This document shows, piece after piece, positions 7,673 to 13,342 of a stretch of DNA of 64,000 nt. Location of the stretch: the IMG/VR virus record IMGVR_UViG_3300009158_000001, positions 1 to 64,000 of that record, one strand, 5' to 3'. The translations under genes were made by a program, and so were the position numbers. The notes below the pieces were generated by a model. That model was given only the letters and a program-made list of their open reading frames with translations. It was not told the origin of the DNA and did not search any database. The stretch's first letter is position 1; every line of letters starts with the position of its first letter. The stretch is from a virus.

Positions 7673-8956
7673 ATGGGAATGGTACATCTTCATGCGCATA
7701 GTTACTACTCATTACTTGATGGCTTACAGCCTGCAGATGAAATGGGTAAGACTGTAGCTGCCAGAGGAATGAATGCAGTTGCATTGACAGATCATGGATA
7801 TATGGGTGGCATCCCAGAATTCGTAAAAGGCTGCCGTGCAGCTAATGTAAAGCCTATCATTGGTAATGAAACATACCTTGCTTTTGGCGACGCCAAGACT
7901 AAGTCTGACTTTATGCCAGAGAATGGCGTAGCCGAGAAGGCTGTTAACAATGGCCACTTCCTATTACTTGCCAAGAACGAAGAAGGCTACAAGAACCTAA
8001 TGAAGCTTACTAAGTATTCATATGAAGATGGCTTTTATCGCTATCCTCGTATTGATCTAGATACTTTTAAGCAGCACGCCACAGGCTTGATTGCTACTAG
8101 TACTTGTATCAGTAGTCAATGCTTCAAGTATTGGCACTGGGGTGAGCATGCAAAGATAGATAGATGGTGTGATGAAGTCAGAGAGGCAGTCGGACACGAC
8201 AGCTTCTTTCTTGAGCTTCAGCATAATAACGTTGAAAAACAATATGGTTACAATCAATATCTAATTGATCTAAGCAAGAGGAAGAATATTCCTCTTGTAC
8301 TTACAGCTGATGCTCATCATCAGAATCAAGATCAGTATAAGCTACGTAGCTATGTTATGTGCGTAAGCATGCATAAGACTCCAGACACAATGCCATATGA
8401 AGTTCAAGATCATAATGCTTGGATGTATGATGCCGAGTTTGCAAAGACTCTTTGTGATGACTGGCAGTTACCACATGAGGCAATTACTAATACTCAGCAT
8501 GTAGCAGATCTCGTAGATGGTGACTACTTTGAGCGAGTAACCAAAGCGCCTAACCTTCAACTCGAAGGCATGACGCCCGAAGGGACAAGCTTAATGCTTC
8601 TTAAGAAAGCTAAGGCTGGACTTATCTCTCGTCTTGGCGTAAAGAGTTGGACTGATGTCCCTAAAGCCTACAAGGATAGAATTAGATATGAGTTCCAAGT
8701 CATTGACGAGGCACGCTATAGTTCTTATTTCCTTGTCGTTCAAGACTATGTTAGCCTGGCTAAGGGTATGGGTATACCTGTTGGCCCAGCTCGTGGTTCT
8801 GGTGGCGGATCTTTGATCTCATGGTCACTAGGGATCACAGCTAAGCATCTTGATCCTGTTAAGCATGGTCTATTGTTTGAACGCTTTCTCAATCCTGGTC
8901 GAGTAAGAATTACATTAGATTACTCAGAAGATATGAAAGAGCTTGAAAATGCCTAA
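7673..8956 (+). CDS. dnaE: DNA polymerase III alpha (DnaE-type), N-terminal part: PHP domain + first part of palm
   Basis: HLHAHSYYSLLDG, ALTDHG, GNETY, HFLLLAKNEEGYKNLMKL, GFYRYPRID, TADAH, SYFLVVQDYV, GPARGSGGGSLISWSLGIT, GLLFERFLNPGRV, then a stop 16 residues later. The ATG at 7673 is preferred over the track TTG at 7583. Confidence 0.93.
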   Translation: MGMVHLHAHSYYSLLDGLQPADEMGKTVAARGMNAVALTDHGYMGGIPEFVKGCRAANVKPIIGNETYLAFGDAKTKSDFMPENGVAEKAVNNGHFLLLAKNEEGYKNLMKLTKYSYEDGFYRYPRIDLDTFKQHATGLIATSTCISSQCFKYWHWGEHAKIDRWCDEVREAVGHDSFFLELQHNNVEKQYGYNQYLIDLSKRKNIPLVLTADAHHQNQDQYKLRSYVMCVSMHKTPDTMPYEVQDHNAWMYDAEFAKTLCDDWQLPHEAITNTQHVADLVDGDYFERVTKAPNLQLEGMTPEGTSLMLLKKAKAGLISRLGVKSWTDVPKAYKDRIRYEFQVIDEARYSSYFLVVQDYVSLAKGMGIPVGPARGSGGGSLISWSLGITAKHLDPVKHGLLFERFLNPGRVRITLDYSEDMKELENA

Positions 8957-9263
8957 TGAAAAGTCTATAGTGTATACACCAGAGACCTTATCTTATAGGA
9001 AAGTCTTCAAAGAGAAGTATCAGTGGAACTCAAAAACTGAGACTTTCTTACCTATTAAAAGTTTTCTACTAGATCATACTTGGAACTGGCACAGCCGACT
9101 TGGTTGGATATACACAGTTCCATTCTTTACTTTTTTATATTTATTTTTCCGTCACTATTGGACTAGCGACTCTGAGAAGAAAAAAGAGATTTTAAATCTT
9201 TACAGAGAAGTATTTCTTAAACACTGCCTACTGGATGGACATGATCAGCAAGAAAAATCTTAA
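8949..9263 (+). CDS. Hypothetical 104 aa aromatic-rich protein between the two dnaE parts
   Basis: ATG overlaps the end of dnaE-N (ATGCCTAA) and the 3' end overlaps the dnaE-C start. Contains a hydrophobic stretch WIYTVPFFTFLYLFF. Confidence 0.6.
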   Translation: MPNEKSIVYTPETLSYRKVFKEKYQWNSKTETFLPIKSFLLDHTWNWHSRLGWIYTVPFFTFLYLFFRHYWTSDSEKKKEILNLYREVFLKHCLLDGHDQQEKS

Positions 9264-11655
9264 TCAGCTCTATCTACAGGATAGGCTAAGTACAATAAAC
9301 AAAGATTATTTAGACTTTGAGACTCGTTATCTTACAGACGAAACAATTGATTTTATCAATAAGGCTTATGTCAGCAAGACAAAGCTTAGCAATAAAAGTA
9401 ACTCTGCTTTAATTTATGCTCTTGGTCTTTCAGATATTTATAATCCAGACGAACGCGTTACTTATCATGTTGACGGCGAAGGTCCAGACATTGACACTGA
9501 CTTCTGTAATGTTCGTGCTGATGATTTAATCAAAGCACTTCAAGTTAAGTATGGCCATGACCGTGTACTTCGTGTATCTACGTATAAGCCTTGGTCTCTT
9601 AAGACCAGCGTTAAAGCTTTTACTAAGTTACTTAAACATGCAGACGGTTCATATAGAACTATTGCCGACGCAGAGCGACTGGCAGATAGTTTACCAGAAA
9701 GTCATCGTGGCAAGTATGTAACTTATAAAGAACTAATCGAAGACAATAGCGAACACATAAAAAAGATTGTAGAAGCTAATCAAGATATCTTTAGCCTTTG
9801 CGGTCCAGTAGATGGTCAAGCAAAAGAAGTTAGTGTACATGCTAGCGCAGTTCTAATTGGTACAAGTCCAGTAGATCAGATGATACCTATTCGCAAGAGC
9901 AAGACTGAAGGCGCAGATTGGTTTAATCTTACCCAGTGGGAAGGTCCAACCTTAGAAAAGATGAACTTTATTAAGTTCGATATCCTCAGGATTGACTGTC
10001 TTACAATTAATGATCTTACCTGTAAGCGCATTGGCAAGTCTCTTAAGTGGCTAGAGGAAGAAGTTCCTACTGATGATCCAGCCGTGTTTGAATTAATCAA
10101 TAAGGGATTTACAGCTGGTCTATTCCAGATGGAAGAGACTTATCTTCTAAAGCTTGTAGCTGATCTTAAGCCGCAAAGCGTTCAAGATCTGGCAGTCTTC
10201 TCAGCTCTTAATCGTCCTGGTCCTCGTGACTCTGGTCTTCTTCAAGACTACATTGACTATAAGAAGACTCGTCAAACTCAGAATAAGTTGCATCCATTAC
10301 TTGATGATGTACTTGCCGAGACCGGCGGTGTCCTTATCTATCAGGAACAGATTATGGCTGCCTGTCAGATTCTTGCAGGTGTAACGCTTCAGGAAGCTGA
10401 TAAGATCAGAAAGGCTATGGGCAAGAAAGATGCTGCGCTAATGGCAGAGTATCGTACACTTTTTGTGGACGGCTGTGCACGTCTCCATAAGATTGATATG
10501 GGAGAGTCAACTCGTATTTGGAATGTTATTGCGGCATTTGCTGAGTATGGCTTCAATAAAAGCCATGCTCTCGCTTACGCATTTATTACTTACTTCAATG
10601 CCTATCTTAAGACTTACTATCCTACAGATTTTATGCTTACGCTAATGACTGTTAGAAGTGGTAAGCCTGAGAAGCTAGTCAGATATATCAACGAGTATCG
10701 CCAGATGGGTTACAACATTCTTCCACCTAGTATTAACAATAGTGATATTGGCTTTACTAAGTTGGATGACAATACTATTCTGTTTGGCCTTGGTATGATC
10801 AATGGCATTGGTAACAAAGCTAGTGACCTTATACTTAAGGCACGCGGTCGCAAGTCCTTTACAAGCATGGCTGACTTCTTCACTAGAATCAATCGTACAA
10901 AGATTAACTCTGGTGTTGTTAGTATACTTGCAAAGGTTGGCGCATTTGATAGCTTTGGCTATGATAGAGTCAAGCTTGTAGATAAGCTTCCTGATATCTT
11001 TGATTACTATACAAAGGTTGAGAACTATCAAACAAGAATAGTTCAGGCTTTTGAACGCAACAAGGAAGTAGATGCTTATCCTGCTTTGCTCGATGACTGG
11101 ACAACCAAACTAAAAGCTGGTGTAATTACAGTCCATCTAGATTCAGATAGTAAGAAAGTTTACTCAGAGCTGAGACCTAAGAAGCCATTAGTTCTTAAAG
11201 TTCCTGATCAGCCTACTTTTCCTGACTTAGAATCTATTAAGAAAGCATCTGACTATAGAGTCCCACTGCAAATTGTTAAGTGGGAATCAGAGTATTGTAA
11301 GTTCTTTATTAGTCGCCATCCACTATCTTATATTACTAAGACTCCACCAGGAATTCTTATTAATCAGATAGAAGACATCGATGAGACAAACAGCAATGAA
11401 GGCAATCTGCTCGTCGCGGTATCTCATATTAAAGAACAGCAAATTAAAAGTGGTAAATCAAAAGGAAAATTGATGGCAACATTGACAATCGAAGATTTAT
11501 CTTCTATATCAGAAGTCACGCTGTTCTCCGATCAATATGAAGAACTCAAAGATAAGCTTGACTATTGTTCCCTATTATTCTTCCCCTACAAAGCAACCAA
11601 GAAAGATGACTTCTTACGGATTCGCCCAGTGGGAAAAATTACTTTAATAAAGTAA
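9235..11655 (+). CDS. dnaE: DNA polymerase III alpha (DnaE-type), C-terminal part: catalytic palm, thumb, fingers, HhH, OB
   Basis: PDIDTDF, SVHASAV, IKFDIL, TAGLFQME, ALNRPGP, TGGVLIYQEQIM, ADKIRKAMGKK, FAEYGFNKSHALAY, ILPPSINNS, FGLGMINGIG, OB-fold KGKLMATLTIEDLS. The start may be 9241. Confidence 0.95.
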   Translation: MDMISKKNLNQLYLQDRLSTINKDYLDFETRYLTDETIDFINKAYVSKTKLSNKSNSALIYALGLSDIYNPDERVTYHVDGEGPDIDTDFCNVRADDLIKALQVKYGHDRVLRVSTYKPWSLKTSVKAFTKLLKHADGSYRTIADAERLADSLPESHRGKYVTYKELIEDNSEHIKKIVEANQDIFSLCGPVDGQAKEVSVHASAVLIGTSPVDQMIPIRKSKTEGADWFNLTQWEGPTLEKMNFIKFDILRIDCLTINDLTCKRIGKSLKWLEEEVPTDDPAVFELINKGFTAGLFQMEETYLLKLVADLKPQSVQDLAVFSALNRPGPRDSGLLQDYIDYKKTRQTQNKLHPLLDDVLAETGGVLIYQEQIMAACQILAGVTLQEADKIRKAMGKKDAALMAEYRTLFVDGCARLHKIDMGESTRIWNVIAAFAEYGFNKSHALAYAFITYFNAYLKTYYPTDFMLTLMTVRSGKPEKLVRYINEYRQMGYNILPPSINNSDIGFTKLDDNTILFGLGMINGIGNKASDLILKARGRKSFTSMADFFTRINRTKINSGVVSILAKVGAFDSFGYDRVKLVDKLPDIFDYYTKVENYQTRIVQAFERNKEVDAYPALLDDWTTKLKAGVITVHLDSDSKKVYSELRPKKPLVLKVPDQPTFPDLESIKKASDYRVPLQIVKWESEYCKFFISRHPLSYITKTPPGILINQIEDIDETNSNEGNLLVAVSHIKEQQIKSGKSKGKLMATLTIEDLSSISEVTLFSDQYEELKDKLDYCSLLFFPYKATKKDDFLRIRPVGKITLIK

Positions 11656-13229: not shown

Positions 13230-13302
13230 TCTGGCTTAGCTCAGCGGTAGAAGCGGGAAACTGTTAATTTCTAGGTCATAGGTTCAAATCCTATAGTCAG
13301 AG
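13230..13302 (+). tRNA. tRNA-Asn (GTT), CCA not encoded
   Basis: Acceptor TCTGGCT/AGTCAGA with discriminator G. D arm GCTCAGCGGTAGAAGC. Anticodon arm GGAAA-CT-GTT-AA-TTTCT. T arm ATAGG-TTCAAAT-CCTAT. Confidence 0.92.
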
Positions 13303-13342
13303 CTTGATTAAAATATTCTCTTATATTCGTACAGAGGCTAGT

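Follow-up and report, generated by a model that had tools for sequence, protein, structure and literature searches.

A phage DnaE polymerase encoded by two genes that divide its active site

A bacterial-type DnaE is split inside its catalytic centre

How can a replicative DNA polymerase function when its active site is encoded by two separate genes? This question is raised by IMGVR_UViG_3300009158_000001, a complete virus record of 174,107 bp with direct terminal repeats, of which we analysed the first 64 kb (the window). Here, a bacterial-type dnaE is encoded as two genes, dnaE-N (7673-8956, 427 amino acids) and dnaE-C (9235-11655, 806 amino acids), both on the plus strand, as are all polymerase features located below. 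A preliminary description of this DNA had proposed a split without an intein, a two-subunit replicase whose active site is assembled in trans and, at the start of the second part, a decayed copy of the end of the first. The open reading frames (ORFs), coordinates, motifs and break point on which it relied were all correct.

The product of dnaE-N matched the Pfam families PHP (9e-41) and DNA_pol3_alpha (positions 4-100, 1e-29), and thus comprises the PHP exonuclease domain and the first part of the palm, which binds the incoming deoxynucleoside triphosphate (dNTP). Its PHROG matches were phrog_405 and two families that hold N-halves only, phrog_7513 and phrog_13169. The product of dnaE-C matched positions 100-259 of DNA_pol3_alpha, the finger domain and HHH_6, and consists of a leader, the catalytic part of the palm, the thumb, the fingers, a helix-hairpin-helix (HhH) domain and a C-terminal OB-like region. 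The break is therefore at position 100 of the Pfam model, inside the active site, between FERFLNPGR and PDIDTDF. The end of dnaE-N reads ...GPARGSGGGSLISWSLGIT...GLLFERFLNPGRV and is followed by a 16-residue tail, RITLDYSEDMKELENA. NPGRV ends at position 8905 and PDIDTDF starts at 9484, leaving 578 nucleotides (nt) between the two motifs. dnaE-N, a small middle ORF and dnaE-C are each in a different frame, and their stop and start codons overlap (ATGCCTAA). Taken across both genes, the features of a family C polymerase are present: the PHP domain, a Pol-beta-like palm with the GS motif and three catalytic aspartates, the finger domain and HhH. The catalytic core is not a single polypeptide, being encoded by two ORFs in different frames, and this split is kept in the clade.

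The residues on each side of the break are strongly conserved. In the PHP domain (7685-8224, residues 5-184) the metal-ligand residues are retained, and all nine (H5, H7, D16, H41, E66, H95, C145, D213 and H215) were invariant or nearly so in the N-half alignment (A5). The palm segment of dnaE-N (8600-8905, residues 310-411) carries RGS (8792-8800) and FERFLNPGRV (8876-8905), and within it R374, G375, S376, R404, F405, N407 and R410 were invariant across dnaE-N and relatives (n = 51 sequences), full-length DnaEs among them. In dnaE-C, the catalytic strand PDIDTDF (9484-9504) supplies D85 and D87, and P84, D85, D87 and D89 were invariant in the C-half alignment (A4), as were K247 and D249 of the K247-F-D249 motif (9973-9981), D249 being the third catalytic aspartate. 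As had been proposed, the split parts the triphosphate-binding residues (RGS and ERF.N.GR, dnaE-N) from the catalytic aspartates (D85, D87 and D249, dnaE-C), and each set is invariant.

In structures of the DNA polymerase III (Pol III) alpha subunit (2HNH, 2HPI and 3E0D), the GS motif and the FLNPER arginine keep the dNTP triphosphate beside the three aspartates. Pfam models for PolA, PolB and the beta sliding clamp found no match in the complete 174-kb genome. DnaE is the only recognisable DNA polymerase of this phage, and any clamp that it uses must be that of the host or an unrecognised one. Since this sole, essential polymerase has complementary invariant active-site residues on two chains, non-covalent assembly is the best explanation, and the active site is most likely assembled in trans, as judged from the invariant residues on the separate halves. 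We consider it probable, with fairly good confidence, that the phage DnaE is a non-covalent complex of two independently translated chains, with the active site at their interface and with the dnaE-N tail and the dnaE-C leader as overlaps. Given the conserved split and the lack of any other polymerase found, the two-subunit replicase of the preliminary description appears to be the best reading of these sequences. In such an enzyme, dnaE-N would supply the PHP exonuclease together with those palm helices which grip the triphosphate of the incoming dNTP (RGS and FERFLNPxR), and dnaE-C the metal-binding aspartates (PDxDxD and KxD), the thumb, the fingers and the DNA-binding domains. No RNA or protein splicing would join the two; they would associate non-covalently and form the active site where they meet.

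A different division of labour would have the halves working apart, with dnaE-N as a free PHP proofreading exonuclease and dnaE-C polymerising alone, its leader replacing the missing palm segment. The conserved PHP metal ligands are compatible with this, as are some rows of the structure comparison in which the alignment with the canonical palm region takes in the leader. The halves can also be unlinked in the genome: in one relative no N-half lies within 4 kb upstream of dnaE-C, and the two are thus not adjacent. However, those rows that include the leader superpose badly, and the leader has neither RGS nor the FERFLNPxR arginine, yet in dnaE-N these residues are invariant at the level of full-length DnaEs. 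This invariance is hard to explain unless the dNTP is still bound beside the aspartates, and we therefore regard independent function of the halves as very unlikely.

The halves are not rejoined by a recognisable intein or intron

A two-gene enzyme could still be made as a single chain if splicing, trans-splicing or translational bypass restored it, and a sequencing error or a pseudogene could give the appearance of a split. No Hint/intein domain was found by Pfam in either half. The hallmarks of a split intein, namely Hint halves with Cys or Ser at position 1, TxxH, and a terminal His-Asn followed by Ser, Thr or Cys, are absent from the window, and so is the ribozyme core that a group I or group II intron would place between the exons. 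Rfam gave no match in 8500-9900 even at E values up to 10, the RNA of the 578-nt gap folds no better than shuffled sequences (z -0.78), and there is no terminator-like site between the halves. Both searches detected such elements where they exist in relatives: the split intein of one contig (L012) gave a Hint match of 8e-9, and the group I intron of another (L021) matched RF00028 with 61 bits (E 8.5e-15). With both positive controls working, the claim of a split without intein or intron was borne out.

Six independent IMG/VR assemblies share this three-gene layout at 96-98% identity, and it recurs in relatives that are much more distant; therefore, the split is not an assembly or frameshift artefact. 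The one point in favour of a restored single chain is that relatives have an intein or an intron located at the break site or close to it. Against it are the lack of Hint, of a conserved Cys, Ser or Thr nucleophile at the junction and of a terminal Asn, the lack of any intron model match or structured RNA, the three frames with coupled starts, and the recurrence of the layout in many independent assemblies with very different gap content. Strong purifying selection on both halves also speaks against a pseudogene. Taken together, a single chain restored after transcription or translation, or an error in the record, seems extremely unlikely.

The relatives that do carry such elements show what has struck this region. 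In two phage contigs of 388 kb and 149 kb (L012:5329-11389 and L009:1247-7307), a true split intein divides dnaE in two at the Pfam position where the window has its break. The junction reads NPSRD|CLTDD... on one side and ...LVHN|SPPDIDIDF on the other, and two ORFs, of 105 and of 353 amino acids (the latter DUF7487), lie between the halves; the loci thus also have a putative endonuclease ORF. In a contig of GCA_013565735.1 (L021:800-1123), a group I intron directly follows GGSPPD of a leader-bearing dnaE-C. The intein in the first two contigs and the intron in the third mark the break region as a hot spot for mobile elements.

Two further observations concern these relatives. The dnaE-N of the two intein-bearing contigs has an N-terminal RNase_T (DnaQ-like) exonuclease fused ahead of PHP. 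Many database proteins of 80-125 amino acids consist of the leader only and stop at the intron point of the third contig (PPDC[IKN], PPDK...), which suggests that an insertion is polymorphic at this point.

The split is conserved across a clade of uncultured phages

The break point recurs in other genomes, across a clade of uncultured phages. C-halves that bear the leader and have no PHP domain are 802-856 amino acids long and range down to 27% identity; N-halves that end shortly after FERFLNPGR are 396-440 amino acids long (most 405-431) and range down to 36% identity. A profile of the leader only, searched against 1.84 billion representatives, found 75 clusters, in which the match was at the extreme N-terminus of the protein, except in P0309, where it was internal. 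The split clade thus comprises at least 75 clusters at 50% identity. Gene order is also kept (DUF2201, PhoH, dnaE-N, gap, dnaE-C, Metallophos and, further on, sigma70 and primase), and PHROGs contains N-only and C-only DnaE families (phrog_7513, phrog_13169 and phrog_12219). Neither the region (blastn) nor the leader region (tblastn) had a match among 50,697 GenBank phage records, so that the leader occurs in no cultured phage of that set.

The gap between the halves is far less constant. In the window it holds the middle ORF (8949-9263, ATG at 8949), which encodes 104 amino acids with an isoelectric point of 9.0 and one hydrophobic helix, and which overlaps both the dnaE-N stop and the dnaE-C start. 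Searches of Pfam and PHROG placed it in no family, and found no nuclease family. It evolves far faster than its flanks: where the polymerase halves are 96-98% identical, the ORF is visibly different in two relatives (L001 and L002) and almost unrecognisable, at 96 amino acids, in three others (L003-L005). Across relatives, the gap ranges from 14 nt without any ORF (the P0006 contig) to forms with ORFs of 96, 104, 110, 146 or 185 amino acids, and the middle ORFs of two relatives compared with that of the window showed no similarity to it. In a second subclade (L025:243-6526), 2.5 kb separate dnaE-N and dnaE-C and contain four unannotated ORFs, the first of which (132 amino acids) is on the opposite strand, while the next three encode 109, 264 and 323 amino acids. 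Because the content of the gap varies, or the ORF is absent, among relatives, the middle ORF is not part of the enzyme; it is variable and dispensable for the split. The gap itself may be a landing site for small variable ORFs without a role in the enzyme.

Contiguous relatives bear on the history of the split. The closest, P0314 (1121 amino acids, 45% identity to dnaE-N), has a canonical junction, FERFLNKERNDFPDIDLDF, and lies in the same PhoH-flanked slot. In trees of the C-terminal core, the split forms and P0314 formed one well-supported clade. A second single-chain DnaE, P0309 (L020:1162-5358; 1398 amino acids), is very AT-rich and very divergent, and is a natural fused form of both halves.

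The leader and the tail are conserved, and probably derive from the enzyme itself

What, then, are the extra sequences at the break? The leader of dnaE-C (9235-9483, 83 amino acids) is a conserved helical extension without RGS and FERF. Its residues F28, E29, N53, N56, S57 and G81 were invariant in 17 relatives and it ends in G-x-G. In AlphaFold2 (AF2) models its predicted local distance difference test scores were 91-97, and its only secondary structure was helical (residues 9-12, 15-18, 23-31, 35-47 and 58-62), with a looser linker after them. Purifying selection acts on the leader, which is not decaying. The tail of dnaE-N (8906-8953, 16 amino acids) has the clade consensus V.I.LDFs.DL and was conserved in 21 N-halves, with no conserved nucleophile. 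We also considered the tail and leader as the remnant of an intein. This was ruled out, as the leader is all-alpha and the two, 99 amino acids together, have no conserved nucleophile or terminal Asn.

Profile comparison pointed to the enzyme itself as the source of the leader. Aligned with the C-terminus of the N-half by hhalign, the leader gave a colinear match (P 0.0035). When a 55-sequence leader profile was scanned against 49 windows covering both halves, the two best were within N-half 301-420, with leader residues 64-80 on N 380-395, the GSLxxWxLGIT helix (P 4e-4), and a second, colinear match placed leader 8-42 on N 308-345 (P 0.012). BLASTP against a contiguous Streptomyces phage DnaE aligned SNSALIYALGLSDI--YNPDERV with AGSLAAYALGITD..FLNPERV, and MAFFT put all C-half leaders on the canonical palm columns rather than on the internal leader of P0309, which made this alignment unsuited to the fused protein. 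Positions ~30-71 of phrog_21652 matched both halves. A comparison of the leader profile with PDB sequences gave a chance match only, and in the ESM Atlas its features were weak (0.89-0.90; one viral DNA_pol3_alpha cluster). On these alignments, the leader is probably a diverged copy of the region of the GS-motif helix. The earlier suggestion that it is a decayed copy of the end of the first part thus held in one respect: there is a likeness, modest and with moderate sequence support. The word decayed did not hold, given the six residues that are invariant in 17 relatives.

The tail gave a comparable picture on the other side of the break. BLASTP aligned its ITLDYSEDMKE with IDIDFDERRRD of a contiguous phage DnaE, and MAFFT put it on the DxDF columns. 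The tail is therefore likely to have originated as a copy of the catalytic strand PDIDxDF that has since degenerated, which would make the overlap between the halves reciprocal. Most likely, the 16-residue tail and the 83-residue leader would be copies left by a partial duplication at fission that became degenerate reciprocally. Their probable function today would be in docking or stabilisation, by analogy with the tails of split NrdA in phage Aeh1. Overall, we lean towards a duplication origin for leader and tail.

Several results weigh against this account. BLASTP offered a second, alternative register for the leader helix. VIA-align of two AF2 models with Pol III alpha gave good superpositions over residues 81-260 only, at a root-mean-square deviation (rmsd) of 2-3.5 A, and in the rows that included the leader the rmsd was ~11 A, so that likeness of leader and palm at the level of the fold is not supported there. 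Tail and leader alike are acidic, whereas the Aeh1 tails have complementary charges. In the maximum-likelihood tree, contiguous P0314 was nested in the split clade, as sister to the subclade of the window, which would require either that the gene split twice or that the halves were fused again; the approximately unbiased test did not reject a single fission that leaves P0314 outside (p 0.10). Finally, the stretch of P0309 between FERF and PDIDFE contains one segment that resembles the tail (GQFNLFIDGYSFDS) and another, at residues 694-758, that resembles the leader. As this fused form keeps both, the insert could predate the split: it may have been duplicated in one chain before fission, or P0309, which sits on a long branch, may be a re-fusion.

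A competing origin would make the tail and leader foreign or newly evolved sequence that came with a mobile-element insertion and was then selected as interaction tails, the enzyme remaining a two-chain DnaE. The break site has indeed been struck by a split intein with its putative endonuclease ORF, and a group I intron has inserted just downstream. The poor superposition of the leader on the palm and the modest P-values of the similarity are also compatible with such an origin, and it has a precedent in the proposal made for NrdA-a/b of Aeh1 (PMC3045599). However, the best of the 49 hhalign windows was exactly the palm segment that a duplication predicts, and a further match was colinear with it; MAFFT and BLASTP independently placed the leader and the tail on the canonical flanks; and the helix-helix-loop-helix order agrees, in a leader that is all-helical and thus no Hint remnant. 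A foreign or new origin is possible, but in our judgement clearly the less likely one.

For the preferred origin by duplication, a more specific mechanism can be proposed. A partial tandem duplication across the active-site helix-loop-helix and the catalytic strand, with reciprocal loss of motifs, might have left a pseudo-palm leader that acts as a built-in placeholder. It would shield the catalytic sheet of dnaE-C, otherwise exposed, until dnaE-N takes its place or uses it for docking. We put this forward as an unlikely, speculative extension. If it were true, the polymerase activity of the replicase would be switched on by assembly of the subunits, or the proofreading and dNTP-binding module would be exchangeable.

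Comparison with other split phage enzymes

The idea of a phage enzyme in separate pieces is not new, as Pol III alpha modules, gp43 and NrdA have all been described in split form. Jumbo phages of group 2.2 (T4-like) make a minimal Pol III alpha as two stand-alone proteins, an N-terminal NTP-binding one and a C-terminal Mg2+-/template-binding one (Iyer et al. 2021; PMC7824862). Their genes lie far apart, alongside a family-B polymerase, and the proteins are presumed to reassemble (PMC7824862). The break between the NTP-binding and Mg-binding subdomains is shared with the window. In contrast, the jumbo-phage enzyme is minimal and without other Pol III domains, whereas that of the window is full-size (PHP, palm, thumb, fingers and HhH). 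It also has a family-B polymerase as partner and distant genes, whereas in the window DnaE is the sole polymerase found, its genes are adjacent, and a conserved tail and leader flank the break.

The NrdA of Aeromonas phage Aeh1 is split by mobE into NrdA-a and NrdA-b, and the tails at the break are essential for activity (Crona et al. 2011; PMC3045599). Like the DnaE of the window, this is an essential phage enzyme broken in the region of its active site without splicing, and both have unique C- and N-terminal tails at the break. NrdA is, however, another enzyme, and an HNH endonuclease gene lies between its halves, whereas the middle ORF of the window belongs to no nuclease family found and has no counterpart in the P0006 contig. 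The Aeh1 tails are opposite in charge; the tail and leader of the window are both acidic, and resemble flanking segments of the enzyme.

Another replicative polymerase made from two genes is gp43A/gp43B of the T4-related Aeromonas phages 25 and 44RR, which co-purify and are active (Petrov et al. 2010, summarised in PMC2988022). Between the gp43 halves lies either a spacer that is not translated or a gene for an endonuclease. Unlike DnaE, gp43 belongs to family B rather than family C, with an unrelated fold and another break point.

Fractured dnaE genes with split inteins and a free-standing endonuclease are also known (Dassa et al. 2009; PMC2677866), and the two intein-bearing contigs described above have such an arrangement. 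As in the window, dnaE of a phage or environmental sequence is present as two genes with ORFs between them, and in the 388-kb contig the break is at the same Pfam position. In contrast to the window, where neither is found, these loci have Hint halves (Cys1 ... His-Asn|Ser) and ligation by trans-splicing. The cyanobacterial split DnaE (Ssp/Npu DnaE intein) likewise has dnaE in two genes, but these are cellular rather than viral and their products are joined covalently by the intein. Its break is far downstream of the catalytic aspartates. The absence of Hint halves from the window agrees with the distinction from this system drawn in the preliminary description. The intein site of the cyanobacterial split DnaE also differs from that of the environmental fractured dnaE loci (PMC2677866).

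To these cases the window adds a full-size and apparently sole DnaE replicase, overlaps that look self-derived and a broad clade of uncultured phages. Family C polymerases have been studied almost only as single-chain catalytic subunits, and here the dNTP-binding and metal-binding residues are on separate chains. The locus thus offers a natural system for studying how a Pol-beta-like active site assembles from fragments, which elements hold the fragments together, and how an essential gene survives fragmentation at a site prone to mobile elements. Annotation is affected as well, as such dnaE halves are easily miscalled as truncated genes or pseudogenes.

Genomic context

The two polymerase genes are part of a plus-strand replication module. 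Its other members encode ribonucleotide reductase, RecA, a DUF2201/vWA-like product, PhoH, a nuclease of the Metallophos family, a sigma factor and a primase-helicase. After this module comes a set of very large ORFs on the minus strand, which are presumably virion genes. Downstream of the replication genes, the window also contains a tRNA-Asn (GTT) gene at 13230-13303.

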